DNA from: Candidatus Parcubacteria bacterium
GTDB lineage: Bacteria > Patescibacteriota > Minisyncoccia > Phycocordibacterales > JAKAEA01
Length of the DNA: 64,000 bases
Reading direction: 5' to 3'
NCBI GenBank assembly: GCA_963806325.1
Contig: CAWDXL010000002.1
Location: 128,802 to 192,801, forward strand
The translations under genes and the position numbers were made by a program. The notes under the pieces were generated by a model that worked only from the letters and a program-made list of their open reading frames with translations, was not told where the DNA came from and made no database searches. Shown here in pieces: positions 1,902 through 57,570 of the stretch. Position 1 is the first letter of the stretch; each line of letters opens with the position of its first letter.

Positions 1902-3011
1902 ATGAAAAAGCACTTTGAAAAAATTGCATCATTCTATCAGCGGTATGAGCGGCACATTTCCTCACTTGCGCTTGTCGGCGGATTCGTTTTTGATGCGATC
2001 ACGCTGAAGCGTGTTGATCTTTTTCTTGAAAATTTTTGGGTAGTTATGCATCTTGTGGTAGCGGCAGTTGGCATCATTGCATTAAATTTTATTGAACAGG
2101 AAAAGTCTGCCACCGGCACGAAAGAAAAAAACGAGGTGATGACTCTTCATTTCTGGCTTATTTTTATCGTGCAATTTGCATTTGGAGGGCTTCTGAGTAC
2201 ATTTTTAGTTTTTTATTTCAGAAGCGCGACATCGAGCACCGCGTGGCCGTTTCTTCTGCTGCTCGCTATTATTTTTATTGCCAACGAGGTTTTTAAAAAG
2301 CACTACTCCCGTTTATATTTTCAGATAGGCATGCTCTTTGTCTCCATTTTTTCATTTATGATTTATATCGTACCTGTCATCACGCACACCATTAGTACGA
2401 ATATGTTTATTCTAAGTGGTGCACTGAGCGTGCTTATTCTATGGCTCTACCTTATTTGTCTGCGGTTTATAACGCGGGAAAAGCTTAGACAAGAGCGCTG
2501 GATTCTTATTTCAGGCATTATTGCGATCTATGCTGCTATCAACATTCTTTACTTTACGCATACTATTCCACCATTGCCGCTTTCTCTCAAAGATGCGGGC
2601 GTATACCACTCCATTACTAAGGATGCTGATGGAAATTATGAAGCGGTTTCCGAATCAAAAAATTGGTCAGATTATTTCAGCTTCAATGATCCTGTATACA
2701 ATGAAGTAGTGGGGCAGCCGGTGTATGCGTATAGTGCAGTATTTTTGCCGACTGAATTTAATCTGAATATTGTTCACGTTTGGCAATATTATGACGGTAC
2801 GAAAAAGCGGTGGATCACAGAAAATAAAATCGTACTGCCGGTATCCGGCGGCCGCGATGGGGGATATCGAACCTATACTGAAAAAACTAATCTTGTCTCA
2901 GGTCTATGGAGGGTCAGCGTTGAAACAATGTCGGGACAGTATATCGGCAGGATTCAATTCAATGTACAAATATCAACAGATACGCCAGCACTTTCCACAG
3001 TACAGCTTTAA
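1902..3011 (+). CDS. polytopic membrane protein with soluble C-terminal domain (function unknown)
   Basis: About 6 predicted TM helices followed by a ~150-aa hydrophilic C-terminus. Start chosen at MKKHFEK (ATG 1902). Confidence 0.5.
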   Translation: MKKHFEKIASFYQRYERHISSLALVGGFVFDAITLKRVDLFLENFWVVMHLVVAAVGIIALNFIEQEKSATGTKEKNEVMTLHFWLIFIVQFAFGGLLSTFLVFYFRSATSSTAWPFLLLLAIIFIANEVFKKHYSRLYFQIGMLFVSIFSFMIYIVPVITHTISTNMFILSGALSVLILWLYLICLRFITREKLRQERWILISGIIAIYAAINILYFTHTIPPLPLSLKDAGVYHSITKDADGNYEAVSESKNWSDYFSFNDPVYNEVVGQPVYAYSAVFLPTEFNLNIVHVWQYYDGTKKRWITENKIVLPVSGGRDGGYRTYTEKTNLVSGLWRVSVETMSGQYIGRIQFNVQISTDTPALSTVQL

Positions 3012-30510: not shown

Positions 30511-32317
<1,807 letters not shown>

Positions 32318-32404: not shown

Positions 32405-33754
32405 CTACTCCTTTTTTGGTTCAGCTTTTGAAAGCAGTGTGTCGATTCGGTTGATGTCTCGAGGAAATGGTGTGGCTTCTTTGACATTTGCCAGATTAAG
32501 CATGCGAGCCGTCAAACGTTCAAGTCCAGTGGATGAGCCACCATGCGGGGGCATGCCATACTTGAATGCTTGGAGATAAAAAGAAAATTTTTCAGGATCA
32601 AGGCCTCTTTCTTTGATTCGTTCAATAAGATCTTCATAATTATGTATTCGCTGACTGCCGCTGTTGATTTCCAGTCCGCGGAATAACAAGTCGAAGCTCT
32701 TTGAAAACACAGGATCAGCTTCATCTGCGTACGTATAGAACGCGCGTTTTTTTGTCGGAAAATGAGTGATAAATACAAAGTCTGAGCCCTTCTCTTTCAA
32801 TGCCCATTCGCATATTTGACGCTCATGCTCAGGTTCCATATCCAATTCACCGATAGCTTTTCCTCCGAATTCTCGTTCAATTATTTCTTGCGCTTCGCGA
32901 AGTTTGAGGATTGGAAATTTGTCACCAAGCTGTGGAACAGGAACTTTCATTCTTTCAAAAATATCTGCATGTTTTGATCCAACTTCTCTAACCACATCAC
33001 GGATGACATTTTCCAAAACCTTCATTACATCGAGATGGTCTTTGATAAATCCCATTTCGAAATCCATCTGTGTAAGCTCACTTAAATGGCGTGTTGTGGC
33101 TGATTTCTCTCCACGGAATATTTTTGCAATCGTAAATGCTCGCTCAAAGACTCCTACCATGATCTGTTTGTAGAATTGTGGGCTGGTAGCAAGAAATGCT
33201 TTGGCACCATAGAGATATTCAACTTTAAAAGCTGCCGACCCTCCTTCAGCATCTCCTCCTACAAGCGCAGGGGCTTGAAATTCTGTAAAGTTTTGTCGGC
33301 GCAGTGATTTTCTATACTCATCTACGAGAGCTGCCTGCATCGTGAAAATATCCTTTGCTCTATCTGTACGAAGCGTTAGAGGTAGATAATCAAAATAGGT
33401 ATCAAGATTTACTTCCGTATCTTTTTCAAACGGCAACTCTTTTGCTTTTGAAAAAATAGATATCTTTTTGATTTCAAGCTCTATACCTCCGTTCATTTTT
33501 CCCGCCTGAACATTTTTTTCCGGACGCTTGTTGACCATGCCTTCTACGGATACTACCCATTCTGGCCGGAGTTCCTTGGCTACTTCAAGCGCTTCTTTAT
33601 GCATCGGCAATACGACACCCTGCACTTTGCCGGTCATGTCGCGAAACTCGAAGAAAACCATTTTCCCTTGGTCGCGACGCACGTCTACCCAGCCCGAAAT
33701 ACTCACTTCTTTTCCGACGTACTCCCTCAAATCTTTTATATATGTTCTTTCCAT
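32405..33754 (-). CDS. aspS: aspartate--tRNA ligase, archaeal/eukaryotic-type class IIb (AspRS; AsnRS not fully excluded)
   Basis: N-terminal OB fold 'VSISGWVDVRRDQGKMVFFEFRD'. Class II motifs 'FRGEKS' and 'GMPPHGGSSTGLERL', ending '...FPRD'. The start is placed at MERTYIK (ATG 33754), because the upstream 53 codons of the ORF-track version translate the T-box leader. Confidence 0.75.
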   Translation of the reverse strand: MERTYIKDLREYVGKEVSISGWVDVRRDQGKMVFFEFRDMTGKVQGVVLPMHKEALEVAKELRPEWVVSVEGMVNKRPEKNVQAGKMNGGIELEIKKISIFSKAKELPFEKDTEVNLDTYFDYLPLTLRTDRAKDIFTMQAALVDEYRKSLRRQNFTEFQAPALVGGDAEGGSAAFKVEYLYGAKAFLATSPQFYKQIMVGVFERAFTIAKIFRGEKSATTRHLSELTQMDFEMGFIKDHLDVMKVLENVIRDVVREVGSKHADIFERMKVPVPQLGDKFPILKLREAQEIIEREFGGKAIGELDMEPEHERQICEWALKEKGSDFVFITHFPTKKRAFYTYADEADPVFSKSFDLLFRGLEINSGSQRIHNYEDLIERIKERGLDPEKFSFYLQAFKYGMPPHGGSSTGLERLTARMLNLANVKEATPFPRDINRIDTLLSKAEPKKE

Positions 33755-33990
33755 GGCACTAATTTCCGAATTGGAGAAACAAAAAGCCCCTCCAAATTCA
33801 TTATTTCTAATAAATTCGCAGGGGCGACTTTGTCGCGGTGCCACCCTGTTTTTTGCTTCATTCACTGCATACGGTGCAGAGCCGGAAGATTCTACTTGTT
33901 GACTGTTTTGCATGTAGCGAAACAGTCAATGTTCTTTCTTCGTCTCGCCGGTGTCAGCCGGGTCATAGATAATGAGAGTATATATTGAAA
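33755..33990 (-). ncRNA. T-box riboswitch leader of aspS
   Basis: On the minus strand the conserved T-box sequence 'AGGGTGGCACCGCG' (plus coords ~33834-33848) sits immediately 5' of a GC-stem terminator (GCCCCT...AGGGGC + TTTTTG, plus coords ~33781-33826), and this precedes the aaRS start. Confidence 0.6.
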
Positions 33991-34011
33991 TGATATACAG
34001 TCAAGAGATTC

Positions 34012-35025
34012 CTATTCGAAATAATCTATTTTGATAGCAGCCCTCACTTCTTTAAGTGTCTGCGCAGCGGCGAGGCGGACTTTTGCCGTGCCTTCTTTCA
34101 AAATATTCATCACATAGTCTGGATCTTTTGCCAAAGCCTCGCGCTTCTCTCGAATAGGCTTGATGAGCGTTTTCAAAATTTCTGCGAGGCGCTTTTTGAT
34201 AAGCACATCGCCGAGGCCTCCTTTTATATAATCAGCCTTGAGCTTCTCCACTTCTTCTTTATTGGAATCAAAAATATCGAGATAGATAAACACGACATTA
34301 CCTTCTACTTTTCCTGGATCTTCTACATGGACATGTCCCGGGTCGGTATACATCTGCATGACTTTTTCCTCGATTTCTTTATCGGAATCTGAAAGGTAAA
34401 TAGCATTGTTGAGCGACTTGCTCATCTTGGCATTGCCGTCGAGACCGATAAGCCGCGAGTGTTTTGACACAACAGGAGTAATCTTCTTAAAGACCTCGCC
34501 GTAGATGCTATTAAACTTTTGAATAATTTCATTGGCTTGTTCAAGCACCGGCAGCTGGTCTTCACCAACAGGTACAATATGTGCCTTGCATACCAAAATA
34601 TCGGCAGTCTGGCTCACGGGATACACCAAAAATCCAGCAGGCACATCTTCACCAAAACCTTTCTGCTGGATCTCGCTTTTTACGGTCGGATTTCTTTTGA
34701 GCCTGGCGAGCGTAACGAGATTTAAAAAGAAAATAGTCAGCTCGGCGATTTCTGGAATTTGTGATTGAATGAAAAAAGTAGTTTTTTCGGGATCAATGCC
34801 GCAGGCCAGATTGTCAAGCGCCACTTCAGCCACATTGCGCCGCACTTTTTCCGGGTTGTCGGCGTTGTCGGTAAGAGCTTGCACATCAGCGACCATATAA
34901 TAGGCATGCTCGTATTTTTCCTGAAGATCAAGCCTATTCAAAATAGAGCCGACATAGTGGCCCAAATGAAGCTTACCTGTCGGCCGGTCTCCTGTTAAAA
35001 CAGTATTTTTAGTATCTTTGCTCAT
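34012..35025 (-). CDS. trpS: tryptophan--tRNA ligase
   Basis: 'GDRPTGKLHLGHYVG' (HIGH) and 'KMSKSLNNAI' (KMSKS). Confidence 0.9.
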   Translation of the reverse strand: MSKDTKNTVLTGDRPTGKLHLGHYVGSILNRLDLQEKYEHAYYMVADVQALTDNADNPEKVRRNVAEVALDNLACGIDPEKTTFFIQSQIPEIAELTIFFLNLVTLARLKRNPTVKSEIQQKGFGEDVPAGFLVYPVSQTADILVCKAHIVPVGEDQLPVLEQANEIIQKFNSIYGEVFKKITPVVSKHSRLIGLDGNAKMSKSLNNAIYLSDSDKEIEEKVMQMYTDPGHVHVEDPGKVEGNVVFIYLDIFDSNKEEVEKLKADYIKGGLGDVLIKKRLAEILKTLIKPIREKREALAKDPDYVMNILKEGTAKVRLAAAQTLKEVRAAIKIDYFE

Positions 35026-39867: not shown

Positions 39868-40824
39868 CTAGCATGCCTTCTTAATTAAAAGGTATTGACC
39901 TGTTTGAGTATAGAATTTTACTTTTCCTTTGCATTTTTCTGCATACTGCAAAATATCCTTTTTTCTTAAAAATCTAAAATTTGAAAAAAGTTCAGCATTT
40001 AAGAAATGTGGATGGTTCCAACCCACAATGGTTTGTGGAATAATAACCATCCAGCTCCTAAAACCATCGTACTCAAAAATATTCTCCGTGATATTATTTA
40101 TCACAGCATCAAATTTTGGTTGCAATGTTAATGGTAGATGGTGTTTGAAAAGCGAGTGATAGATTATGTTAAAATATTTTTTGGGAAAAAATTTATCAAG
40201 ATTAAAAATATCATTTTTACATAAAATAAGTACCACCTTTTTTTGAGATGTTCTTTTTATAGATTCAACCTTAGTCTCATCTAAATTTTCTACCTCGTAA
40301 AAGTCTATCTTGTCAAAAATACCCTTAAGATTGTCTTTTGCAATTACTTGAGTTGTGGGTGATTTATCAACCGCAATCATAACAATCTTATGTTTAAAGT
40401 TAGAGGAAAGTATTTTTTTAATTATCTGATGATCAAGTTCCATGCCACCTGCACCAAGGTCAGCCATTACCACATCACTATTCTGTGAAAAAATAAAATT
40501 TGTTATTGTCTCAACAATAGGTTTAACAAGACCAGGTCTATCCTTTTCTTGCATCTCAATAAGTCTTTTATGCATCAACACATCCCACTCCTCCACTGGA
40601 AAATCAGTGAGTTCCAAGAGCTTTAAGCTATCGAGCTTAGGAGCCCGGAAAAAAAGCCACTTGAGATACGTCGGAAAATTTTTGATAGCCTTAAGAAAGG
40701 CAATATTCTCTTCTATTGCATACATTTCATCTTTATACTCAGGATTTTTCTTAAACGACTCCAATTTTTCAAGAGCACTTTTAATCTCGATATCTCGTGT
40801 GTTTTGCATATTATTTGTATTCAA
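39868..40824 (-). CDS. class I SAM-dependent methyltransferase
   Basis: Motif I 'VVMADLGAGGMEL'. It overlaps the upstream nitroreductase gene by 14 nt, which suggests an operon. Confidence 0.65.
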   Translation of the reverse strand: MNTNNMQNTRDIEIKSALEKLESFKKNPEYKDEMYAIEENIAFLKAIKNFPTYLKWLFFRAPKLDSLKLLELTDFPVEEWDVLMHKRLIEMQEKDRPGLVKPIVETITNFIFSQNSDVVMADLGAGGMELDHQIIKKILSSNFKHKIVMIAVDKSPTTQVIAKDNLKGIFDKIDFYEVENLDETKVESIKRTSQKKVVLILCKNDIFNLDKFFPKKYFNIIYHSLFKHHLPLTLQPKFDAVINNITENIFEYDGFRSWMVIIPQTIVGWNHPHFLNAELFSNFRFLRKKDILQYAEKCKGKVKFYTQTGQYLLIKKAC

Positions 40825-41863
40825 TCTGTGGCTCCATTCTCATTGCTCGTGCCGATGGGGCATCAGCATAGCCGAGGCGCATAAGCATGGGGATTTTCTT
40901 TCCTTGCACACCGAACGTATCCTCGATGGCATGATAGGCCTCATCTATTGCCTTCAGATGCTCTTTAGAAAAAGAAGCCGTGTCTCCTCCATCTATTCTC
41001 AGTTTAAAATAAAGCACGCCCGTGCATGGGTGTATGCTAAGGCCAAGTTTTGTAGCGGTGAGCCATACCCGCTCGACGGCCCTGCCTGCATTTATATAAT
41101 CTTTGTCGGTGCTTGCTTGTATTACGATCACGCCGAGTGCGGCAGATTTTGCATACTTCTCAGCATTTTCTTTTTCAATAGCTTTTGAGACTCCAGCAAT
41201 ATTAAAAATTTTCAAAATAGCCCAGCTTTTAAAAATTTTTACAGCTTTAAGCTGATGAGGTAAAAATTCGAGCGTCTTGATATAGAATCCCCCGGCTTTA
41301 TACTGCTCATTTTCATTCCATAAAATATGATTATAGAAAAAGGTGTGGAGAGCTTTATTCTCAAAAATGATCCGCTCATTGAGAGCAATTGCCTTCCCTG
41401 CTTTATCAAGAGACGGCTGATCATCAATAATTTTAAATTCACCAAATCCAGTACCTCTTGCATTTTCTATGAGTGCCTTTTTTTGATCATTATTAAGTTT
41501 GACGGGAGTATTTTCTTTTCTGTTGGTGCCGCGCAACGGTATCACCTGATACAAATCATCCTCTTTGATCGCTGATTTTTCCAAAGTCACTACCGAAACA
41601 AGATTTTTAATATTCTTATCGGGCAATACAGCTACGCTTGCTCTATATCCAAAGTGCGAAGCGCTGATAACAATATTTTCTATCAGGGCTCCGTGTGCTA
41701 CAAGGGAGCCTTTTTGCTCAAAATTGTACAGAGACTGATCTGCTTCCGGAATAATAAAAATAGAAATTTTGTTGCCCTCTACAATAAACTTCCATGGCTG
41801 GCAATTTTCTCCCGACGGAGCTTTGACACCATCGGTTATTATTTTTTGGATGTCATTGTTCAT
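40811..41863 (-). CDS. nitroreductase-fold FMN oxidoreductase, two-lobed/tandem architecture
   Basis: 'APSGENCQPWKF' at the N-terminus, with a second nitroreductase-like half ('AALGVIVIQAS...AGRAVERVWLTATKLGL'). Total length 350 aa. Confidence 0.65.
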   Translation of the reverse strand: MNNDIQKIITDGVKAPSGENCQPWKFIVEGNKISIFIIPEADQSLYNFEQKGSLVAHGALIENIVISASHFGYRASVAVLPDKNIKNLVSVVTLEKSAIKEDDLYQVIPLRGTNRKENTPVKLNNDQKKALIENARGTGFGEFKIIDDQPSLDKAGKAIALNERIIFENKALHTFFYNHILWNENEQYKAGGFYIKTLEFLPHQLKAVKIFKSWAILKIFNIAGVSKAIEKENAEKYAKSAALGVIVIQASTDKDYINAGRAVERVWLTATKLGLSIHPCTGVLYFKLRIDGGDTASFSKEHLKAIDEAYHAIEDTFGVQGKKIPMLMRLGYADAPSARAMRMEPQIEYK

Positions 41864-41942
41864 ATTAATGAATTATAGCAGAGTGCATTTTAATTGCGAA
41901 GACCTTCGGGTGCACAGAGTGGTGACTTGCTTTTTATTAACT

Positions 41943-41965
41943 ATGTTGTTAGTGTTAAACAACAA
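41943..41965. promoter_or_regulatory. variant palindromic operator (aTGTTGTT-agtgtta-AACAACAA) in divergent promoter region
   Basis: The TGTTGT-N9-ACAACA core is shared with the other five sites. It lies between the trmB-like gene (+) and the nitroreductase operon (-). Confidence 0.45.
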
Positions 41966-41990
41966 TATATTTAGAAGCTAATTTTATCTT

Positions 41991-42767
41991 ATGCTTGTAA
42001 AAGACCTTATAGAATTTGGACTTAATGAAAAAGAAGCAAAGGCTTATCTTGCTCTGCTCGAGCTTGAAGTGGCGGGCGTGCAGGAGATTTCTAAAGCAGC
42101 CGGTATCAATAGAAGCTCGGCGTATATTACCCTTGAGGCACTCAAGGAGCGTGGACTCGTCAGTATTTCTGATGACAAAAAAGTGCGAAGATATGTAGCT
42201 ACGTCTCCCGATGCAATTCTTAGAACTGCAGAAGATATGGTCGCCAAGCAAGAACGTATTCAGAAAAAAATATCAGCGATGATTCCGGAGATGAAAGCTT
42301 TATATAAGGGAGTGAAAAAGAAACCAATAATACAAGTGTATGAGGGTAAACAAGGACTTATAAATTGTTTTGAAGAAACTCTTAAAAACAAAGAAAAATT
42401 GATGAGAGTGTGGTCTGCTCCAGCAAATTTAGGAAGGATTATTTATGAATATTTGCCTGGGTATATTAGCAAAAGACTTGGTCTGGGAATAAAAATGATC
42501 GGTATCCACCCAGATAATGGAATACATAAGAAAATGGCACATGATATTAGTCAGGCTCCTGATGAAAACTTACTCATACCATCGGATAAATACAATTTTA
42601 CTGCCGACCTGGCAATCTATGATGATAAAATTAGCTACATGTCTAGTGAGAACGATGGGCTAGCTGTTATTATTGAAAGCAAAGAAATATCTGAGGTTAT
42701 GAAAAGCATTTTTGATCTTGCGTGGGAGGAGGCGAAAAGGTTGAGCAAGGGTGAGAAGAAATCATGA
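41991..42767 (+). CDS. TrmB-family transcriptional regulator
   Basis: N-terminal wHTH 'FGLNEKEAKAYLALLELEVAGVQEISKAAGINRSSAYITLEALKERGLV', plus a C-terminal effector-domain-like region. Confidence 0.75.
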   Translation: MLVKDLIEFGLNEKEAKAYLALLELEVAGVQEISKAAGINRSSAYITLEALKERGLVSISDDKKVRRYVATSPDAILRTAEDMVAKQERIQKKISAMIPEMKALYKGVKKKPIIQVYEGKQGLINCFEETLKNKEKLMRVWSAPANLGRIIYEYLPGYISKRLGLGIKMIGIHPDNGIHKKMAHDISQAPDENLLIPSDKYNFTADLAIYDDKISYMSSENDGLAVIIESKEISEVMKSIFDLAWEEAKRLSKGEKKS

Positions 42768-42903
42768 GGCTTAATATATCAATAATTGATTCTCGGTTTT
42801 TTATTTCTCGAGTAAGCTTTTGTGCATAATCTTTCTTAAAAATTCCTCGAATTCCTAGGCGTGCTTTTTATGAAGAGATGTATGAGAATTCATGTGCATA
42901 GCT

Positions 42904-43752
42904 TTATAATGCAGATATAAATCTTAGAAAATTTCGACTCTCAGTTTCGGGTAGTAGACTGCCTAGCTTTGTATTTGGAGTATATGTAGCACCATGCCAA
43001 TCACTTCCACCAGTTATGACTAAATTATATTTTTTTGCAAGCTTTTCTAGAGTATTTATCTGCTCTGGAGTATGTGAAGGATAATATACTTCAATACCCT
43101 GTAGTCCGCACAACACAAGTTCACTAATGAAGTTTTCATAATTTTCTTCGATCCAAGCCTCTCATAAATTCTGCCCGAATGTGCAATGACCACAATCCCG
43201 CCGTTTTTCTTTATGAGATCTATAACAGTCTTTGGATTAAACATCCACGAATCGTCTTCCTCAACAAATACATATTGTTTAAGGGCATCTTTGATTGTGA
43301 TTTTTTGTTTTAAAAAAAGACATACTAAGCGTGCAAGTGTGTTTCTTGTAATATATTGTTCGTGATGTTTATTATATATATTCTTCAAAATTTAGGTTTA
43401 TTCCCGGTAGCTCTCTGTTTATTTTTTCGATAATTTTTTTAGCTCGGATATTATATCCATCAATGACCGGTTTCAAGGCACTATTTATCTCGAGATTAAA
43501 TTTCTTAGAATATCCGAGCATGTGTATTGATATATTCCTTTTTTTATCGATACATGAAATTTCTATACCATCTACAAAGTATACATTGATCGCTTTTGCA
43601 TCGCGCTTGATATCCTGTACTTTAGGACTAATATAATTATGATCTACGACTGAAAAAAGTGATATACCACTTTCTTTGATTTTAGAAAGTACATATTTAG
43701 GGGAATGCTCTCCGTCTGAATAGTATGAGTGAATGTGAAGATCTGTTTTCAT
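42904..43752 (-). pseudogene. PHP-domain phosphoesterase split across three reading frames
   Basis: 43372..43752 carries 'DLHIHSYYSDG'. 43056..43388 carries 'GGIVVIAHSGR'. 42904..43116 carries 'GIEVYYPSH...ITGGSDWHG'. All three are collinear with one PHP protein. Confidence 0.6.
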
Positions 43753-43779
43753 ATTTTAATTATTATAACAAATAAAATA

Positions 43780-43803
43780 TCCGCTGATAGGTTTCTCAGC
43801 GGA
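43780..43803 (-). terminator. rho-independent terminator after nucleotidyltransferase gene
   Basis: tccgctga-taggtttc-tcagcgga. On the minus strand the stem is followed by ATTTTATTTGTT. Confidence 0.5.
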
Positions 43804-43811
43804 CAATATTT

Positions 43812-44582
43812 TTAGTAGGTCAGAGACTTGCATATTTCCTCATAGGAACCTTTGAATTCATCTCCTTTAAGAACTAAATTTACAACATTTTCATACCACG
43901 TCATTAAGCTTAGTGCCTTCTGAAAATTTAAACCTTTCTTACAAGATAAAAGAAATGGTTCGGCCGGGAGTGAATTAACGCCATATACATTATCAAACAA
44001 TTTCTGCGCCAGTCTAATGTTAGATGGTGAACAGTAATAATTCTTGCGAAGTAAACACGAATTATAAGTTAGGGCATTTCCGATGCCATGTAAGAGTTTG
44101 CTCACATAGATTCTCCCAGATTCTCCTTCAAGTGATCTGATAAGCTGTCTTCTGCATATTGTCCTATTGTCGTACAAAACATACCCAGCCAGATCTTTGA
44201 AATCAAATTTTGTCTGATCATCAGTGGTTGATCTTAGATAAAAATTTCCTTTTAGAGAATTGCCGAACACCAGCGATGGGTTGTAACGTGGATACCATAG
44301 AGGTGACCCAATATCTTCAACCTCATCCTGAGTATGAGGCACAAGATCAATGTCACATTTCCATTTTGAAACCAGCATTTCCCGATGTTTTTTTAATGAA
44401 ATGTACACTGACCTATCAACAATCCCAGAACTACTTGGAACAATAATTGCGATATCAACATCAACTGATGTCTCATCATAGTACCAAGAGCCATACGCCA
44501 ATGCTGAAATTACCTCATCGACATTCCTTAGATAGTCAGCAATCCCAACCCAATAAGTACGTCCTCTTTTTTCACAAGTCAA
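43812..44582 (-). CDS. nucleotidyltransferase-fold protein (Pol-beta-like NTase superfamily)
   Basis: 'ALAYGSWYYDETSVDVDIAIIV' gives the G[GS]...DxD signature. The start codon appears to be TTG. Confidence 0.5.
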   Translation of the reverse strand: MTCEKRGRTYWVGIADYLRNVDEVISALAYGSWYYDETSVDVDIAIIVPSSSGIVDRSVYISLKKHREMLVSKWKCDIDLVPHTQDEVEDIGSPLWYPRYNPSLVFGNSLKGNFYLRSTTDDQTKFDFKDLAGYVLYDNRTICRRQLIRSLEGESGRIYVSKLLHGIGNALTYNSCLLRKNYYCSPSNIRLAQKLFDNVYGVNSLPAEPFLLSCKKGLNFQKALSLMTWYENVVNLVLKGDEFKGSYEEICKSLTY

Positions 44583-44667
44583 ACCTTTCTGTAAAAATTT
44601 TACCTACAAGGTAAAATTTAAATGTATAGAACTTAAAAACTCTAAAATTAGAATAATCTTTGTATAA

Positions 44668-44690
44668 TTGTTGTCTATATATAACAACAA
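44668..44690. promoter_or_regulatory. palindromic operator site 3 (TTGTTGTC-tatatat-AACAACAA)
   Basis: Minus-strand TTGACA-N17-TTATTT lies upstream. The site is ~86 nt before the start at 44582. Confidence 0.55.
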
Positions 44691-44857
44691 AAATAAAATA
44701 TTATCATTATATATGTCAAAAGTTGTTTAAATGTTTAAACAGTAAATTTCGCTGCGACATAAGGTAGTTCCACTAAGTTGTTGATCAGTATCAACATTCA
44801 TTTTTAGAATGTACTCTAATTCAAAATAAGTCGTTCTTAGGATCAAACAAAACACAG

Positions 44858-45325
44858 TTACCTCTTATACATCTCCTCTAAAATAAAGAATACGAGCTGG
44901 CATGTGCTGCAGTGGTTGAGATTTTTGTCCGATAAAATAAAATTCCGCATCTTGGTGTCGTTTGAAAGTGCGAGGTACATTTTTCTTAGAAGCTCTTTAT
45001 CACACTGCTCGAGCTTATTGTACAAGCTTTCTGCTTCACTGAAAGCAAACTTGTGTTTGTATTTGCTGCACACTATTTTTTTAACTTTTTCCAGAAGATG
45101 TTCCCTTTCGATTGTTGCCAAAAGATAATTTCCCATCTCGCACGGAGTTATCCTTTCTCGCCAGTCAGCTTCCGGAAAACTTATTTCAAACTGGTCAAAA
45201 AGCTCAAGCAAATCTTTTTTACAGATGACTGATCTTGCTAAAACTATCTCAAGCCATCTAAATTCGAGTTCGGTGTAACCATTCCAGATATCTGTCAACT
45301 CCTGTATTTCAGTAGGCATATACAA
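44858..45325 (-). CDS. hypothetical protein
   Basis: 155-aa ORF immediately downstream of operator-like site 5. Confidence 0.4.
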   Translation of the reverse strand: MYMPTEIQELTDIWNGYTELEFRWLEIVLARSVICKKDLLELFDQFEISFPEADWRERITPCEMGNYLLATIEREHLLEKVKKIVCSKYKHKFAFSEAESLYNKLEQCDKELLRKMYLALSNDTKMRNFILSDKNLNHCSTCQLVFFILEEMYKR

Positions 45326-45346
45326 GGAAGCTTAGTATTCTGTTTT

Positions 45347-45369
45347 TTGTTGTCAAAGCACAACAGTAT
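45347..45369. promoter_or_regulatory. degenerate operator-like site 5 (TTGTTGTC-aaagcac-AACAGtat) plus conserved upstream module
   Basis: The left half is perfect. Roughly 120 bp of flanking sequence are shared with the module upstream of the rSAM gene (tgtcaaaagctgtt..., a(g/t)c(g/t)gtttatttttag). Confidence 0.4.
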
Positions 45370-45555
45370 TTATTATATTCCCGTGAAAATATGTCAAAAG
45401 CTGTTTAAGTGCCAAAACATCCAGTCTTGTGCAATATAGCTAAAAATCAGCGGTTTATTTTTAGTTTATAACAGCTAAATAAAGGAGTTTATTGATTTAA
45501 ATTTTATTTTGTTATGTTATACAAACACTCTCCATGAATATTCATTTTGCCAAGT

Positions 45556-45885
45556 CTATTCGATATCTCTCTTTTTGGTAAAAAATCCCTGCCGAAGGCG
45601 AAAAGCTATTCGTCTGTCGTGATGAACAATAGGCATACCAATCACTTGTTTGCATGTGGCGCATGTGAGCGGCGCAATATTTTTAGGATCTGTAGACCCT
45701 CTATCATATTGCAATTTCTCAAAATTTTCTGGTCCAAATATCCGATTAAGATAGCAACGCTTCAGTTTTCCATCACTATCTTTTTGATAATGAAGCAGTT
45801 CAGCACCACACAGACAAAAAAGCCTGATCATGAATGCTTTTCCGCCACGTATCTTGCGGTACTTGTCGTTTTTCATTTTCACCAT
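45556..45885 (-). CDS. small zinc-ribbon protein (CxxC...CxxC), function unknown
   Basis: 'FCLCGAELL ... LTCATCKQV'. It is the last gene of the rSAM-peptide-peptidase unit. Confidence 0.4.
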   Translation of the reverse strand: MVKMKNDKYRKIRGGKAFMIRLFCLCGAELLHYQKDSDGKLKRCYLNRIFGPENFEKLQYDRGSTDPKNIAPLTCATCKQVIGMPIVHHDRRIAFRLRQGFFTKKRDIE

Positions 45886-45945
45886 AAAACCAATATCTTA
45901 TAGAGGTAGGGTGTTGAAATTTAATCTTTCAATTTCTTAAATTAC

Positions 45946-46578
45946 TCAAATTAGCCTCTGTTTATTTATTTCTTCATAAGTGAGATTGAATCCGTATTCT
46001 TTTGTGAAAGATTCTTCAAACTTCTCTTTTGTTTTAATATTCTTTAAATTTTTAATAAAATTGAGCAACTTTTGCTTGCCAAATTTTTCAACGAGACCAT
46101 CAACAAAAAAACCTGCTTCGCTATATACCTCTTTTCCTCCAACTTCATAAAACTCAAGGAATTTACTAAATACTATCGGTTTTTTCTTGAATTTAATTTG
46201 ACCCGATGTATATATTGCAACACCCTCATTGAGCCATACAGGTGTATGGTTTCCGCCTGCAAGAATATTATAAAAAGAGTGGCTTAGTTCGTGCTTTATT
46301 AATGCAGAGTACTCATCTGGGTGGTACACATGATCACTCTCTTTTCCAAAATTATCCTTATTTAATATATATACTGTTTTCCCTTCTGACCAACCGACTA
46401 TCCATTTCTCAGTTTCCTCACCTTTCAAAAGATTGATAGTTTCACGATTATCAACAATAACGATTTTGGGAAGATGGTGTATCCAGTTAATTTCATAGAA
46501 AATATTTAAATCACTCATTGAATTCTTATATACACTTTCCAGAAAATCATCTTTTGTTAAATTTATTTTAAATATCAT
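45946..46578 (-). CDS. gluzincin-type (peptidase MA-like) zinc metallopeptidase
   Basis: 'IKHELSHSF' (HExxH) followed by 'WLNEGVAIY', which is M1-like HExxH...NEG geometry. Confidence 0.55.
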   Translation of the reverse strand: MIFKINLTKDDFLESVYKNSMSDLNIFYEINWIHHLPKIVIVDNRETINLLKGEETEKWIVGWSEGKTVYILNKDNFGKESDHVYHPDEYSALIKHELSHSFYNILAGGNHTPVWLNEGVAIYTSGQIKFKKKPIVFSKFLEFYEVGGKEVYSEAGFFVDGLVEKFGKQKLLNFIKNLKNIKTKEKFEESFTKEYGFNLTYEEINKQRLI

Positions 46579-46608
46579 GTTTGTAGTTAAATTGTAGCAT
46601 AAAATAAA

Positions 46609-46639
46609 AGGAGAGGTCGGGGTTTAATCCGCCTCTCCT
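46609..46639 (-). terminator. hairpin (attenuator/partial terminator) immediately after the Cys-rich peptide ORF
   Basis: aggagagg-N16-cctctcct, followed on the minus strand by TTTATTTTATG. Confidence 0.35.
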
Positions 46640-46645
46640 GTCGTT

Positions 46646-46777
46646 CTACTTATCACAGTCACTGGCGCAGTCACATGAGACACAGTCGTAGCAGGCACCG
46701 TTGTCACACGACAGACTTTGTGTGCCAGTCCGTACTTCCGTCTCCACAAGAGACACGAAACCATCTTCTTGCTGCAT
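46646..46777 (-). CDS. 43-aa Cys/Asp-rich putative RiPP precursor peptide (MQQEDGFVSLVETEVRTGTQSLSCDNGACYDCVSCDCASDCDK)
   Basis: Absent from the ORF track because it is under 60 aa. It has a strong RBS (GGAGGTG-N9-ATG). The core carries 6 Cys and 5 Asp in its C-terminal 20 aa. It lies 42 nt downstream of the rSAM/SPASM gene. Confidence 0.6.
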   Translation of the reverse strand: MQQEDGFVSLVETEVRTGTQSLSCDNGACYDCVSCDCASDCDK

Positions 46778-46819
46778 GATAATTATCACCTCCTTTCTAT
46801 TTGAATGTACTATTAATTT

Positions 46820-48133
46820 TTATATCAATGATACAGCATTGCGACGTGCAAGTCCCCACACAAACTCCTGTGGATCAAGTCCCCACCAGTCAATTGTTTT
46901 GGTAACAATGTTGTATGTGGTCTCAGATTTCAACTGACTTAATACAGCAAAACCGTTGTGATCCAAAAACACGTTATTATTACTAGAAACAAAGACCCCG
47001 CCAAAAGCTTCCCTTCTTAATCTAAAAATTGGCGTTTTAAAACAGCCGATTGAAACTTTCTGTGGATGTTTCTTTGAAAGTTTAATGGCCTCTATCATTT
47101 CTTCGACATGATCAAGTGCAGTTAGGGAGTCCAACCCATTAATTTTACCGGTACTAGTTTTTGCCTCCATCCGACAACCGGAACCGCACATGTTAAGCAT
47201 GTTGCAAGTCGAGCACTCGGTAGGGACATTGACTCTTTGGCTCCACGGATCCATTTTTGCCCAAATCGTACCAAGGTCTTCTTTTAGTAAATTCCCACAT
47301 GATGTGTCGAGATGAGGACAAGGCCTCACTGAACCATCGTATGAGATAGTGGCTGTAGTAACTCCCGCATTACATCTTCTCGACGTAAATAGTTCTGGGT
47401 GTTTGACGCCATACAAACCACAATACGGGATTGGCTCAAGACTATCCACATGAAGGCCGAGATTTTCGTGGATCCAACAAAGGTCGTTGAGAAACTGAAT
47501 TAATTGCGGTCGATTTACTTGTAGATGAGAGAAGTCTGAACAGTTTCCAGGACATCCGGCTTTAGTTGCCATGAAGTTATTGATTCCGAGCTTGGCAACA
47601 AATTTTGCTGTTTCTATCACTTGACCGTGATTAATTTGAGAAACAACCATATTCGCCGATACTCGAATTCCAGCATCCTGAGCATTTTTGATTCCTTCAA
47701 CCAATTTTCTAAAAGACCCCTGTCTTTGGGTAATGGAGTCGTGTATCTCAGGGGTGGGACCTAGAATCGAGGTTAGTGTATGATCAAGTCCTGCGCGCTT
47801 AAGACTTCTTGCTTTTTCTACAGTAAGTGGCACAAGATTTGAATTTAAACCAACCCCCATATTCATTGATCGAGCATACTCGATGCTCGAGAGAGTTGTT
47901 GTAAAATTAAGAAGAGGTTCCCCACCAGTTATGCTCACATTAAATACTTCAGCCTCACCAAGTTTTGCAAGTATGCTTAAGGCATCTTTTTCACTGAGTG
48001 AAACATTCTGTAAACAAGATGCTGTCTTCTCGTCTTTTTCCCTCCAAAAATTATAGCAATGAACGCATCTACTCGTACATTCTCCAGTGACTTCAATCTG
48101 GACATTAAGTGGCGATCTCAATCTCTTGTTCAT
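46820..48133 (-). CDS. radical SAM / SPASM-domain peptide-modifying enzyme
   Basis: CxxxCxxC 'TGECTSRCVHCYNF' and a C-terminal SPASM Cys cluster ('CNAGVTTATISYDGSVRPCPHL ... CSTCNMLNMCGSGC'). The start is ATG 48133 with an AGGAG RBS. Confidence 0.8.
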   Translation of the reverse strand: MNKRLRSPLNVQIEVTGECTSRCVHCYNFWREKDEKTASCLQNVSLSEKDALSILAKLGEAEVFNVSITGGEPLLNFTTTLSSIEYARSMNMGVGLNSNLVPLTVEKARSLKRAGLDHTLTSILGPTPEIHDSITQRQGSFRKLVEGIKNAQDAGIRVSANMVVSQINHGQVIETAKFVAKLGINNFMATKAGCPGNCSDFSHLQVNRPQLIQFLNDLCWIHENLGLHVDSLEPIPYCGLYGVKHPELFTSRRCNAGVTTATISYDGSVRPCPHLDTSCGNLLKEDLGTIWAKMDPWSQRVNVPTECSTCNMLNMCGSGCRMEAKTSTGKINGLDSLTALDHVEEMIEAIKLSKKHPQKVSIGCFKTPIFRLRREAFGGVFVSSNNNVFLDHNGFAVLSQLKSETTYNIVTKTIDWWGLDPQEFVWGLARRNAVSLI

Positions 48134-48206
48134 GAATGACTCCTGTGCTTTTGGCACATAAAACAATTGTCAAAAAACTCTATTTTTGATAGTAATACCA
48201 TTAAAA

Positions 48207-48229
48207 TTGTTGTCTATATCCAACAACAA
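48207..48229. promoter_or_regulatory. palindromic operator site 4 (TTGTTGTC-tatatcc-AACAACAA)
   Basis: Minus-strand TTGACA-N17-TTTTAT lies upstream. The site is ~75 nt before the rSAM ATG (48133). Confidence 0.55.
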
Positions 48230-48627
48230 TAAAATAACATCTTAACGTATGTGTCAAAACCTGTTGAAAGACTGAAACATATAACAGTATTTAATCTAGG
48301 GAAAATTTAGCTGTTTATTTTTACTTCATAACAACTATTTTTATGGCTGTACTGATTTCTGGGATAAGTTGTTATGAAAATCAAACAGATGTGATTTGAC
48401 AAAAAAATTAGCTGAGAATATTATATGGCACATATTATGCGAATATATTTCGACTGTCAGCAGCAGATACTAACGCCCCAGCAGATGCAACATCTGTCGC
48501 TTTTGTATAGCCGAAACATATTTAGCTAACCCTCAAACCTAAATATATCCCGGCTGCACAAAAGCCGGGACTTTTGTGCAGTATGCGTTCTTTCCAGTTC
48601 TTTGGTCTTATTGTGAAGGAGTTCCCT

Positions 48628-48861
48628 ATGTGGGGAATGGCACAAGTTGTAGCCGTTGATACTTTCTCTACTTTGGAGAAGCTCAAGTCTCATGATCTGC
48701 GTCAACTCGCCAGGAGTCTGGATCCTGAGCACAGATCTCTCGTTGCTCAACAAATGGATACACCTGATGATGTGTTAAGAGATCTATCTGTTGATGGGTC
48801 ATCGGAAAAAGTTCGTATGGCCGCAAAATCCACGCTGCAGAAGAAGTATCCTCACGGTTGA
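48628..48861 (+). CDS. small hypothetical protein (77 aa)
   Basis: GAAGGAG RBS 6 nt before the ATG at 48628. It overlaps the competing minus-strand ORF 48526..48753, which lacks an RBS. Confidence 0.4.
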   Translation: MWGMAQVVAVDTFSTLEKLKSHDLRQLARSLDPEHRSLVAQQMDTPDDVLRDLSVDGSSEKVRMAAKSTLQKKYPHG

Positions 48862-48947
48862 GGTGTTGTCCGTGCGGCAAACGGGCTCCTAAAAAGGGCG
48901 ACTATCGTCTAGTTGCCCTTTTTCTTTTATTATCTATCGATAATATT

Positions 48948-50129
48948 CTATAATCCGAAAATTTTCTTAAAATTATCAGCGACTTCTTTGCGGTGAGCCA
49001 CTTGCTCCGGAGTATTGTAATGCGGATTCAATATGCTATCCATAACGATAAGAGAGCGGTTTGATTCAAGCGGCTGTTTGTTTAAGATTCTGCGTACACA
49101 GTATGCAACAGCGGCACCATTGACGAGTGCTGCACCGCCAAGCTGCGGCCACGAAACAATCGTTTTCCCCATTTCCATGAGCGATTGCTGCATGCGCTCA
49201 GTGACATTTTCTGGTCCGACATGCTGAGTAATTGTTTTGCCGATGCCAAATTTATCAAGCTTGCTCAATGATTCATAGGTCACCCCAGGAAGCCTGCCTT
49301 GGAAAAATGGGGTGTTTCGATCGAGATCGTATCGTTCAACATCAACGACCGCATTGTCACCGTTGTCTGCAGCCATGACAATTGGCACACGGTGTTTCTT
49401 GGCATTTTCGCGAATGAGAAATTTTACGGCAAGATTGTCGAGTTCATCAATCATGACATCAAGCCCTTTGACAAAGGTATCAACATTGTCAGGCTGAATA
49501 CCGTCAGGAAATGTTTCCACAACGGCGTAAGGATTGATTTCATAAATAAATCGGGCAGCCATATTCACTTTAAGCACTCCGAGATTGTCGACGCCGGAAA
49601 GAATCCTATTTGTATTTGAAAGCGCGAGGCGATCCATGTCGGCGAGCTTCATGTGCTTTGCTCCGCCTTGAAGCGCAAGAGCAAACGCTACACTCGATCC
49701 GACACTCAGTCCACCAATGCCAACGGTGGCGTTATAAAATTTGTCCTGCTCTTCCTGATTGATAAGGTTTCTGTTGCGGGCTGTGCGCACCATCTGAAAA
49801 TCAGCTTCCGGCAAAACATGAGTCAATTTTGAAATCCACGGGAAAAATACCCACAAGCCATGCTGCCAGAGAGGCTGGATTTTCTGCAAATTTTCATAAA
49901 ATGCTTTAAATTCCTGCCTGTACGTCGGGGTATATACTTTTGTCGGATTTTTGACGCCAAAAAGCTCAAGCTGCTCTTCTTCATAATCGTCAACAATGTG
50001 CTGAATGCTGCCATTATCAAAAAGCTTACTTACCGCAGCCCTGTCTTTCTCGTCTGAGAGATTAAAAAGAACAGGCTTTGATGAAATGTCTCTATTTGCT
50101 TCCTGCGTCAATTTTTTGGCAAGGTCCAT
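48948..50129 (-). CDS. ThiF/MoeB-family E1-like adenylyltransferase with ~120-aa N-terminal extension
   Basis: Rossmann motif 'NATVGIGGLSVGSSVAFALALQGG' and 'DVMIDELDNLAVKFLIRENAKKHRVPIVMAADNG'. Confidence 0.65.
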   Translation of the reverse strand: MDLAKKLTQEANRDISSKPVLFNLSDEKDRAAVSKLFDNGSIQHIVDDYEEEQLELFGVKNPTKVYTPTYRQEFKAFYENLQKIQPLWQHGLWVFFPWISKLTHVLPEADFQMVRTARNRNLINQEEQDKFYNATVGIGGLSVGSSVAFALALQGGAKHMKLADMDRLALSNTNRILSGVDNLGVLKVNMAARFIYEINPYAVVETFPDGIQPDNVDTFVKGLDVMIDELDNLAVKFLIRENAKKHRVPIVMAADNGDNAVVDVERYDLDRNTPFFQGRLPGVTYESLSKLDKFGIGKTITQHVGPENVTERMQQSLMEMGKTIVSWPQLGGAALVNGAAVAYCVRRILNKQPLESNRSLIVMDSILNPHYNTPEQVAHRKEVADNFKKIFGL

Positions 50130-50252
50130 AGCGTTATCAAATTAAATATATAGATCAGTATATCAAACAACCGCCTGTAGTATCTCGTTGACTTATATAG
50201 AAATAAATGTTATACTCCGCGGCAGATTTCTCATGTAGTTTTCATTCCCTTT

Positions 50253-55655: not shown

Positions 55656-57570
55656 TTACTTAGTCTCTCCTGTTCCTGGCTGGGCTGAATCAGTACCCGG
55701 CTCCTTGGTCTCAGCATCACGCACCGTTCCTTCTGGATTTGGCGGCGTCTGAGCGGCAGAGGCTGCACTATTCATGGCTTGCCCTATTTTTTGAATTTCA
55801 GCCGAGAGTGCTTCTGTAGCTCTTTTGATATCATCAATGTTCGGAGTTGTAGCATCTTTAGCAGTTTTGAGTTCGGCCACTTTTGCCTCAACGGATGTTT
55901 TGACATCAGCCGGCACCTTGTCGCCTGCGTCTTTCAAAGCTTTTTCAGAGGTGTAAACGAGCTGTTCGGCAATGTTTTTCGCTTCAACAATGTCTTTCTT
56001 TTTTTGGTCGTCAGATGCATGCATTTTCAGCGTCTTTTTGCATTTTCTGAATATCTTCTTTTGAAAGACCGGAGCTGCCCTGAATAGTGATCGACTGTTC
56101 TTTGCCTGTTGTTTTTTCTTTTGCTTTTACATTCAAGATACCGTTGGCATCTACGTCGAGCGATACTTCTACTTGAGGCATGCCCCGAGGAGATGGCGGA
56201 ATACCGTCGAGAATAAATTTGCCGAGCGACTTATTGTCGGCAGCCATGACACGCTCGCCCTGGACAATGTGAATTTCTACCGATGTCTGATTATCAGCTG
56301 CTGTTGAGAATACTTGAGAACGAGATGTTGGAATTGTGCTATTTTTCTCGATGAGTTTTGTAGCAACACCACCCATAGTTTCGATACTCAATGAAAGCGG
56401 AATAACATCCAAAAGGAGAATGTCTTTGACGTCTCCGGAAATGACGCCTCCCTGGATAGCAGCACCAACAGCCACTACTTCATCGGGATTGACACCCATG
56501 TGTGGATCTTTGCCGAAATACGCTTTCACGGCCTGTTGCATTGCCGGCATGCGGGTTTGTCCCCCAACGAGCACAACTTCATTAATATCAGCAATTTTAA
56601 ACGGTGAGGCTTCGACAGCGCGCTTGGTGATTTCCATGGCGCGATTGATAAATTCCCGAGTCAACTCTTCAAGCTTTGCTCGTGTCAAACTCGTTACAAG
56701 ATGCTTCGGGCCATCGCTGCCTGAGGAAATAAACGGGATATTGATTTCAGCCTGCACCGCAGATGAAAGCTCGATCTTGGCTTTTTCTGCTGCTTCATCA
56801 AGGCGCTGTACAGCCAGCGAATCTTTCATGAGATCAATGCCATTTTCTTTTTTGAATTCTCCGGCGAGCCATGCAATAATTTTCTGATCGATATCTTTTC
56901 CACCCAGGTGAGCATCGCCGTCGACCGATTTTACCTCCACCACATCACCGCCAACTTCTAGAATCGAGATATCGAACGTACCGCCGCCGAAATCGAAGAC
57001 AGCGATTTTTTCATCTTTCTTTTTGTCGGAACCATACGCAAGCGCTGCAGCCGTCGGCTCGTTGATGATACGCTTCACGTCGAGACCTGCGATTTTGCCG
57101 GCATCCTTTGTCGCCTGACGCTGAGCATCATTAAAATATGCAGGCACCGTAATCACCGCCTCAGTAATTTTTACTCCCAGTTTTGCTTCAGCATCAGCCT
57201 TAAGCTTCTGAAGAATCATTGCCGAGATTTCTTCTGGACGATACCATGCATCACCCATCTTCACCTCGATGCCTCCATTCGTTGATTTGCGCGTTTCAAA
57301 TGGCACAGATTTTATGTCCTTTTGAACAGCGGGTTCATCATAGTTGTGGCCGATGAAGCGCTTGATCTGATAGATCGTATTTTTTGGATTTGTGACTGCC
57401 TGTCTGCGTGCGAGCAAACCGACAATTCTTTCACCTGTTTTTGACTGGGCGACAATCGATGGAGTCGTACGTGCACCCTCAGTATTCTCAATAATTCGTG
57501 CTTCGCCCCCCTCCATGACCGCTACCGCGGAATTTGTGGTACCGAGATCGATACCGATAATTTTTGCCAT
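55656..57570 (-). CDS. dnaK: molecular chaperone DnaK (Hsp70), frame broken by a 4-nt tandem duplication near 56018-56025
   Basis: 56011..57570 shows '[14 protein letters not shown]', 'DLGGGTFD', and the SBD. 55656..56024 encodes the C-terminal lid. The junction 'gcatgcat' would read in frame ('KDAENASDDQKK') with a single gcat. Confidence 0.85.

Follow-up and report, generated by a model that had tools for sequence, protein, structure and literature searches.

A T-box leader of putatively reduced architecture upstream of aspS in a Parcubacteria-group bacterium

INTRODUCTION

T-boxes are textbook tRNA-sensing RNAs, and the rules of their architecture come mostly from Firmicutes and Actinobacteria. 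This work concerns a leader located between trpS and aspS in a 64,000-nt stretch of DNA from a Candidatus Parcubacteria bacterium (contig CAWDXL010000002.1, positions 128,802 to 192,801), referred to below as the window. From its sequence and from comparison with related leaders, it is read here as a genuine T-box of reduced, non-canonical architecture.

The canonical class I transcriptional T-boxes (RF00230; Bacillus subtilis tyrS and glyQS) have a stem I arm of about 85 nt with an internal specifier loop, an AG bulge, and a distal-loop platform. Like them, the window leader precedes an aminoacyl-tRNA synthetase gene and contains the T-box sequence and an antiterminator (UGGN bulge) overlapped by a terminator that runs into a U-tract. 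It also has a kink-turn (K-turn) pattern at the foot of stem I, a purine directly 3' of the specifier, an S-turn in stem II, and the IIA/B element. It differs from them in its 4-bp stem I with a specifier in the terminal loop, in having no stem III hairpin, in scoring 29.9 bits against their 99 to 111, and in its host phylum, Patescibacteria.

The actinobacterial translational ileS T-boxes (Mycobacterium tuberculosis and Nocardia farcinica; TBDB class II) were likened to the window leader from their description in a review, as they have an ultrashort or short stem I and no elbow platform. Structures 6UFG and 6UFM represent this type (as cited in PMC7583486). The K-turn and stem II are essential in the ultrashort stem I arrangement, with stem II and IIA/B compensating (PMC7583486). 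These T-boxes sequester the Shine-Dalgarno sequence, keep stem III, and regulate ileS, whereas the window leader has a terminator hairpin and U-tract, leaves the start codon outside, precedes aspS, has no stem III hairpin, and belongs to another phylum. As judged from the sequence, the decoding half of the leader appears to resemble the actinobacterial ileS T-boxes, and its expression platform appears to be that of the canonical transcriptional class.

The Asn-specific T-box of Clostridium acetobutylicum governs genes of the indirect Asn-tRNA-Asn pathway, including the gene for aspartyl-tRNA synthetase (AspRS), via tRNA-Asn. It is said to have a canonical long stem I and to head an operon with GatCAB. 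It parallels two relatives of the window leader, L017 and L193, that carry AAC as the specifier; the window leader bears GAC, not AAC. The clostridial T-box is a precedent for a link with asparagine formation that depends on tRNA (Saad et al. 2012, as cited in PMC4206432).

TBDB restricted the search with its class II model to Actinobacteria and to those class I hits whose stem I was truncated (PMC7778990). A literature search for links between T-boxes and Patescibacteria, Parcubacteria, Saccharibacteria, or the Candidate Phyla Radiation returned nothing relevant, which is weak evidence of novelty as most subscription journals lay outside its coverage. The reduced architecture was not found described in the literature searched, and the claim of novelty is limited to that extent.

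RESULTS

T-box sequence and Rfam score

Within the window, the T-box core pattern GGGTGGNACCRCG had a single exact match, the sequence AGGGTGGCACCGCG at 33847-33834 of the minus strand. For the 14-mer AGGGTGGNACCGCG, which has 13 specified bases, about 0.002 exact matches are expected by chance per 128 kb of random sequence (arithmetic). An initial, sequence-only reading had placed this 14-mer just 5' of a GCCCCT...AGGGGC hairpin followed by a U-tract, and all three were found on the minus strand as claimed. It had also taken a 53-codon N-terminal extension of aspS in the open reading frame (ORF) track for translated leader. This was borne out, since the public protein has 449 amino acids (aa) and homologues align from residue 1 of MERTYI. 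The 502-codon ORF from 33913 contains this artefactual extension, and its ATG lies inside the stem II loop.

Nothing in the window was found with Rfam at the gathering score (RF00230, 93 bits). With permissive filters, RF00230 gave a full-model alignment to 33975-33817 scoring 29.9 bits, with an E value of 7.9e-5 on 601 nt and of 0.0085 on the whole window, and no other T-box match in the window down to E = 5. In this alignment, 4 nt stood in place of 74 stem I model positions and 7 nt in place of 19 stem III positions. Eight related leaders scored 25 to 39 bits with the same model, compared with 99 to 111 bits for canonical T-boxes of a metagenome scan (same tool). The sequence-only reading was to be given up if a subthreshold score coincided with a stem I and specifier loop that could not be folded. 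The score is indeed subthreshold, yet a K-turn-flanked hairpin presenting GAC followed by A can be folded, so the reading was not refuted.

Competing antiterminator and terminator

The leader as a whole and the elements of its 3' part are as follows.

33970-33777, minus strand: T-box leader, between trpS and aspS
33847-33834, minus strand: T-box sequence, RNA form AGGGUGGCACCGCG, matching 14/14 of the conserved AGGGUGGNACCGCG
33820..33847, minus strand: predicted antiterminator, with A1 AGGG/CCCU, a 7-nt bulge UGGCACC, and A2 GCGAC-AAA-GUCGC
33786..33825, minus strand: predicted 40-nt terminator hairpin GCCCCU-G-CGAAUUUAUUA-GAAA-UAAUGAAUUUG-G-AGGGGC, whose 5' arm is the 3' half of the antiterminator
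33777..33785, minus strand: U-tract UUUUUGUUU (DNA TTTTTGTTT), 22 nt upstream of the aspS start codon

The conserved AGGGUGGNACCGCG comprises the 14 most conserved T-box nucleotides as quoted in PMC11297988. The distal part of A2 covaries (GCGAC/GUCGC, GCGAU/AUCGC, and GCGGUUC/GAAUCGC). The terminator hairpin alone had −23.6 kcal/mol and the antiterminator, in a constrained fold, −8.6 kcal/mol, and the whole leader had −36.3 kcal/mol in the terminator form versus −20.7 kcal/mol in the antiterminator form. Since the terminator form is much more stable, the default state would be OFF, as in known T-boxes. The earlier proposal of a T-box leader with a competing antiterminator and terminator before aspS was supported by these predictions, though the architecture is non-canonical.

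The same hairpin bears on the possibility that the element is a functional T-box acting mainly on translation, or at both levels, with the 3' hairpin as a sequestrator. An ultrashort stem I such as that described below is a feature of translational T-boxes (PMC7583486), and in one related leader, L174, the hairpin lacks a U-tract and AGGGGUGAG stands directly 5' of an AUG. That AUG opens a mere 16-codon ORF, however, and U-rich tracts were seen 3' of the hairpin in every related intact leader but L174 (read by eye). In the window, UUUUUGUUU comes right after the hairpin, and 31 nt separate the hairpin from the start codon of aspS, so that no aspS ribosome-binding site falls within the hairpin. 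A translational element was deemed very unlikely on these grounds. Hairpins with U-tracts also end other genes in these genomes as terminators (read from L193 and L202).

Predicted ultrashort stem I and specifier

The 5' part of the leader and the sequence preceding it contain the following elements.

33999..34004, minus strand: promoter-like −35 element TTGACT (consensus scan), 8 nt past the trpS stop codon
33977..33982, minus strand: promoter-like −10 element TATACT (consensus scan), ending 7 nt before the K-turn
33942..33970, minus strand: predicted ultrashort stem I and K-turn pattern, with C-stem AUC/GAC, a 3-nt bulge UAU, tandem GA/GA, C.C, and 4-bp CCGG/CCGG (hand segmentation, pair table)
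33952..33957, minus strand: predicted specifier loop CUGACA, the terminal loop of stem I, with the Asp codon GAC at 33955-33953 and then the purine A33952

The promoter was predicted by sequence scan, with 10/12 consensus matches and a 16-nt spacer (34004-33977). From its position we infer that the transcript starts at about 33970, the first base of the K-turn C-stem. Similar −35/−10 pairs were read by eye 5' of the K-turn in L017, L035, L096, L174, and L193. Only 41 nt separate the trpS stop codon from the K-turn, and these are taken up by the promoter-like site. A long stem I with the elbow platform (AG bulge plus distal loop; interdigitated double T-loop motif, IDTM) is absent from the leader, as 14 nt lie between the GA dinucleotides.

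The assignment of the K-turn, which is a prediction from sequence, is supported by GA...GA dinucleotides that do not vary among the six full-length leaders of alignment A1. The C-stem and stem I were predicted independently by RNAalifold from a plain MAFFT alignment. Compensatory changes in these two helices comprised C-G to U-A, A-U to G-C, C-G to G-C, and G-C to A-U.

The specifier codon lies in a terminal rather than an internal loop and matches the amino acid of the downstream AspRS gene. The loop is CUGACA or CAGACA in the window leader (W), L204, L211, L035, L096, and L174, UAAACAA in L017, and CUAACAA in L193. The MAFFT and Infernal alignments both set AAC on GAC, so the specifier triplet is GAC or AAC, differing solely in its first base; these are the codons for tRNA-Asp and tRNA-Asn. 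The UGGC bulge is kept in all leaders. The discriminator base of bacterial tRNA-Asp and tRNA-Asn is G73, which would fit UGGC. Specifiers ending in C are strongly preferred in two-codon families (PMC7778990).

The downstream gene bears on the meaning of these triplets.

32405..33754, minus strand: aspS, archaeal-type non-discriminating AspRS of 449 aa (NF003483, 459.8 bits versus a cutoff of 353)

The models for asparaginyl-tRNA synthetase (AsnRS) scored below their own cutoffs for the aspS product, which contains Pfam tRNA-synt_2 and an OB fold. An identical 449-aa protein (P0001, from the ATG at 33754) is present in public collections. The occurrence of GAC or AAC in related leaders is explained by a non-discriminating enzyme, which charges both tRNAs. 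The suggestion that the specifier would tell AspRS from AsnRS was therefore set aside, since the enzyme is a non-discriminating AspRS and leaders bearing either triplet precede AspRS genes.

Stem II, pseudoknot, and linker

Between stem I and the T-box sequence the following elements were assigned.

33885..33941, minus strand: predicted stem II, with lower helix GAAGA/UCUUC, S-turn strands AAGAACA and CAAGUAGAA, and a 10-bp upper helix UUGACUGUUU/AAACAGUCAA
33865..33884, minus strand: predicted stem IIA hairpin CGG-CUCUGCA-CCG and IIB pseudoknot, the loop CUGCA pairing with UGCAG two bases downstream
33848..33864, minus strand: purine-rich 17-nt linker UGAAUGAAGCAAAAAAC in place of stem III, with a fold of 0.0 kcal/mol

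The S-turn strands AAGAA and AGUAGAA are common to W, L035, L096, and L017; the second strand is AGUAGAC in L211 and ACUAGAA in L204. In lower stem II, A-U is replaced by G-C at two pairs, and the sequence of the upper helix differs leader by leader. A terminator-like site on the plus strand at 33897-33931 is the reverse complement of this upper helix and is no independent feature. The IIA/B pseudoknot is, by its definition in the literature, missing only in glycine T-boxes. Shuffled sequences reached the IIB run in 535/5000 cases for W, in 198/5000 for L096, and in 1972-2551/5000 for two 4-bp cases.

The linker retains flanking RAG-like and AA purines (AAG...AAAAAAC). The stem III hairpin is likewise absent from L119/L204, L017, L193, and L096, as found by folding, and from L211, as read from the sequence. 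Real stem III hairpins of −9 to −15 kcal/mol were found in L035, L040, and L174.

Related leaders in other Patescibacteria

Relatives were found by regular-expression scans, one metagenome pattern scan, contig look-ups, and a covariance model of our own (R1). Nine related leaders from other Patescibacteria were recovered in this way, each preceding aspS. Those intact and complete are L204 (the full-length version of L119), L211, L096, L035, L017, L174, and L193. The L040 leader has lost its 5' end at the end of the contig, and the ninth is a decayed relic at L039:2781-2911 (plus strand; aspS at 3001), which scored 76.6 bits on R1. In the relic, the loop reads UUGAAA, the bulge is UAGAACC rather than UGGCACC, A2 is broken, and the terminator has lost its 3' arm. 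The joint damage of specifier, UGGN bulge, A2, and terminator is what would be expected of parts that form one functional unit, and the L039 leader looks like a snapshot of T-box loss.

A hand segmentation of the leaders, checked by script against the real sequences, kept every helix, with compensatory changes. The variants were as follows.

K-turn C-stem: ACC/GGU, AUC/GAC, GCC/GGC
Stem I: CCGG/CCGG, GCGG/CCGC, GCAG/CUGU
Lower stem II: GAAGA/UCUUC, GAGGG/CCCUC
Upper stem II: a different sequence in each leader
IIA: CGG/CCG, CGU/ACG
IIB: CUGCA/UGCAG (W), CUGCG/CGCAG (L211), CAUGU/ACAUG (L096), GCGC/GCGU (L035)

A formal covariation count was made on an Infernal alignment of nine sequences, with 500 sets of shuffled 3' partners and partners slid by 1 to 3 columns as controls.

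Cells forming a standard pair: 94.1% observed; 83.3% shuffled (0/500 reached the observed value); 38-54% slid
Pairs changed on both sides: 11 observed; 6.8 shuffled (3/500); 2-5 slid
Covariation score: 0.268 observed; 0.113 shuffled (0/500); 0.027-0.078 slid

These data decide against a chance resemblance, namely an ordinary intergenic region in which a terminator-like hairpin happens to adjoin a T-box-like 14-mer. An Rfam score far under the curated threshold is what such a region would give. The 14-mer is exact, however, the Rfam alignment is full length with E = 0.0085 on the whole window, and homologous leaders with covariation occupy the same position relative to aspS in unrelated contigs. 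Moreover, canonical T-boxes match a model built from this class, scoring at most about 43 bits and only on the part from stem II and IIA/B to the T-box. The chance explanation is thus effectively refuted by the comparative data.

Some leaders showed further peculiarities. In L174:313-429 (minus strand), the CUGACA stem I and a hairpin for stem III are present, while stem II and IIA/B are missing. After the 3' hairpin there is no U-tract but AGGGGUGAGAAAUG, from which the 16-codon ORF opens about 125 nt upstream of aspS; the L174 leader could be a variant of the sequestrator type or a degenerate one. An ORF of about 103 to 112 codons lies between the T-box and aspS at L035:2659-2997 and at L096:2199-2510; neither matched an NCBIfam family, and no mutual similarity was detectable. 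L207:1370-1500 (plus strand), just before the aspS AUG, has no T-box; a long imperfect hairpin CCCCGUAGUGAUGCUUCGAU...AUCGAAGCACUACUACGGGG stands there instead and may be a different leader element.

Three groups of candidates were rejected. The trpS-aspS gaps of 265 to 424 nt in nine genomes were considered as diverged T-boxes; they hold small ORFs with their own terminators and promoters. Closure of A2 by G-C (CGCCCC versus the usual CGUCCC) was considered as a mark of the class; a metagenome scan gave more than 120 mostly canonical UGGU T-boxes. L116, L129, L118, L191, L198, and L194, short hits that span the whole model and bear UGGU bulges, were considered as reduced T-boxes for other amino acids; they are canonical, with a long stem I upstream of the forced alignment.

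Distribution relative to AspRS lineages

The 80 best related loci came from species-representative genomes, all of them Patescibacteria (labeled Paceibacterota, Nomurabacteria, Kaiserbacteria, Taylorbacteria, etc.). Among these 80 species-level genomes, the leader was present in L017, L035, and L040 only, besides the relic in L039. The closest relatives, L001, L201, L203, and L202 (80-82% AspRS identity), have no leader; their trpS-aspS gap measures 8-26 nt or holds a plain terminator and promoter. Nor was a leader present in five relatives of L119 (82-86% identity).

The AspRS proteins of L096, L119/L204, L193, and L211 are of the bacterial-type short form (NF001750, 594.9 bits for L096) and are 32-37% identical to the window enzyme. 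The AspRS of L174 is known from a 48-residue fragment only and was left out of this assignment. The leaders of W and L119 are 81% identical over 133 nt while the proteins are 32% identical; stem I is the same in W, L204, and L211. The occurrence of a similar leader before two non-orthologous types of AspRS indicates that the element tracks amino acid specificity and not one gene lineage.

The patchy distribution raises the question of whether the window leader is an intact-looking but nonfunctional or decaying T-box remnant, with aspS expressed constitutively or by readthrough from trpS and without response to tRNA. Such a remnant would fit the dispensability seen in the closest relatives with 8-26 nt between trpS and aspS, the existence of a decayed copy in L039, and the lack of the elbow platform and the stem III hairpin, both described as required in a review (PMC7583486). 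It is difficult to reconcile with the window leader itself, in which all conserved elements are intact and a strong terminator left unrelieved would block aspS. The relic in L039 shows what real decay looks like, and there the terminator was lost first. In addition, the form without stem III recurs in L204, L211, L017, L193, and L096 with compensatory changes implying ongoing selection on the helices. A remnant was accordingly judged unlikely.

The short bacterial-type AspRS of Patescibacteria has about 460 aa, apparently lacks the usual insertion domain, and often has a gene for a tRNA_edit (PF04073) protein of 194-206 aa downstream (loci L206-L210; protein P0204). In one 639-aa homologue of the short AspRS, a tRNA_edit domain is fused within AspRS.

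Gene neighborhood and host

The upstream neighbor of the leader and of aspS has no T-box of its own.

34012..35025, minus strand: trpS (TIGR00233, 273.7 bits)

The trpS gene stands directly 5' of aspS in 65 of the 80 related genome loci. The host is a Parcubacteria-group bacterium, and the window carries genes typical of the group, namely murG, ftsW, an mraY-like gene, and many glycosyltransferases; neither gatCAB nor asnS was found among the window ORFs checked. Of the earlier description of an AT-rich reduced genome, the second term holds, as the relatives are metagenome-assembled genomes of Patescibacteria/Parcubacteria; the first is overstated for a window with 36-45% G+C.

Downstream of aspS, at 30511-32317 (minus strand), an ABC transporter is encoded in two overlapping ORFs in different frames (ABC_membrane, 31247-32317; ABC_tran, 30511-31341), and L202 has a single 593-aa ABC transporter gene at the same position. 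The split may reflect a frameshift, a pseudogene, or an assembly error. Between about 40 and 48 kb of the window, the G+C content is lower (0.36-0.37); together with the adjacent region (to about 50200) this stretch encodes a radical SAM/SPASM protein (46820-48166) and a nitroreductase-family protein (40811-41863), with a ThiF-family protein (48948-50129) just past the low-G+C stretch. The region from about 40000 to 50200 could be a cluster of genes for peptide modification, or else an acquired island. The ORF for DnaK (HSP70) at 56011-57570 (minus strand) has only 519 aa and aligns with the Pfam profile (599 positions) from position 1 to 516, which suggests a possibly truncated or split gene.

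DISCUSSION

The leader is proposed to be a reduced T-box that makes transcription of aspS depend on uncharged tRNA-Asp by transcription antitermination, a reading to which we assign a probability of roughly 0.75. By homology with solved T-box-tRNA complexes (PMC7583486), the anticodon GUC of tRNA-Asp would pair with GAC in the stem I loop. The K-turn and the pseudoknot would position stem II so that its S-turn purines clamp the codon-anticodon duplex, again by homology, as in the actinobacterial ileS T-boxes. With uncharged tRNA, the free 3' GCCA would pair with the UGGC bulge and stabilize the antiterminator, so that RNA polymerase reads into aspS. With charged tRNA, the aminoacyl group would sterically block this pairing, the terminator would form, and transcription would stop at 33785-33777.

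Several points weigh against this assignment. The RF00230 score of 29.9 bits misses the curated gathering threshold of 93. A long, elbow-docking stem I is generally required by transcriptional T-boxes, and stem III is indispensable for the discriminator (PMC7583486); the window leader lacks this stem I arm and has no stem III hairpin, its linker folding to 0.0 kcal/mol. Taken alone, the IIB pseudoknot is just moderately above chance per sequence (4-11% for the 5-bp cases and about 40-50% for the 4-bp cases). The alignment behind the formal covariation count was fitted to the structure of the model, and W, L204, and L211 are close relatives, so that the features they share amount to about one observation. 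The absence of the leader from the closest relatives means that it is dispensable. Finally, no gene for tRNA-Asp or tRNA-Asn was detected by ARAGORN, either in the window or in the 87 loci scanned; the anticodon and the discriminator base assumed here are those of bacterial tRNAs in general.

The predicted class departs from all three rules of that review (PMC7583486), as its leaders couple an ultrashort stem I to a classical terminator and often have no stem III hairpin. It is tentatively suggested, as a possibility somewhat short of even, that these leaders constitute a distinct minimal class of terminating T-box, widespread but patchy in Patescibacteria, which may work without the elbow platform or stem III hairpin, move or persist independently of the gene, and switch between Asp and Asn specifiers. 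Because the class scores 25 to 39 bits against a cutoff of 93, annotation at the gathering threshold misses these leaders and may call them N-terminal extensions of aspS.

If this suggestion is true, kinetic capture of tRNA during transcription would not strictly depend on the elbow platform or the stem III hairpin. The leader and its relatives, if they work, would represent a smaller working unit for cotranscriptional tRNA sensing, useful for studies of mechanism and for engineering. The element would also add to the short list of regulatory RNAs predicted in Patescibacteria, which have small genomes with few regulators.

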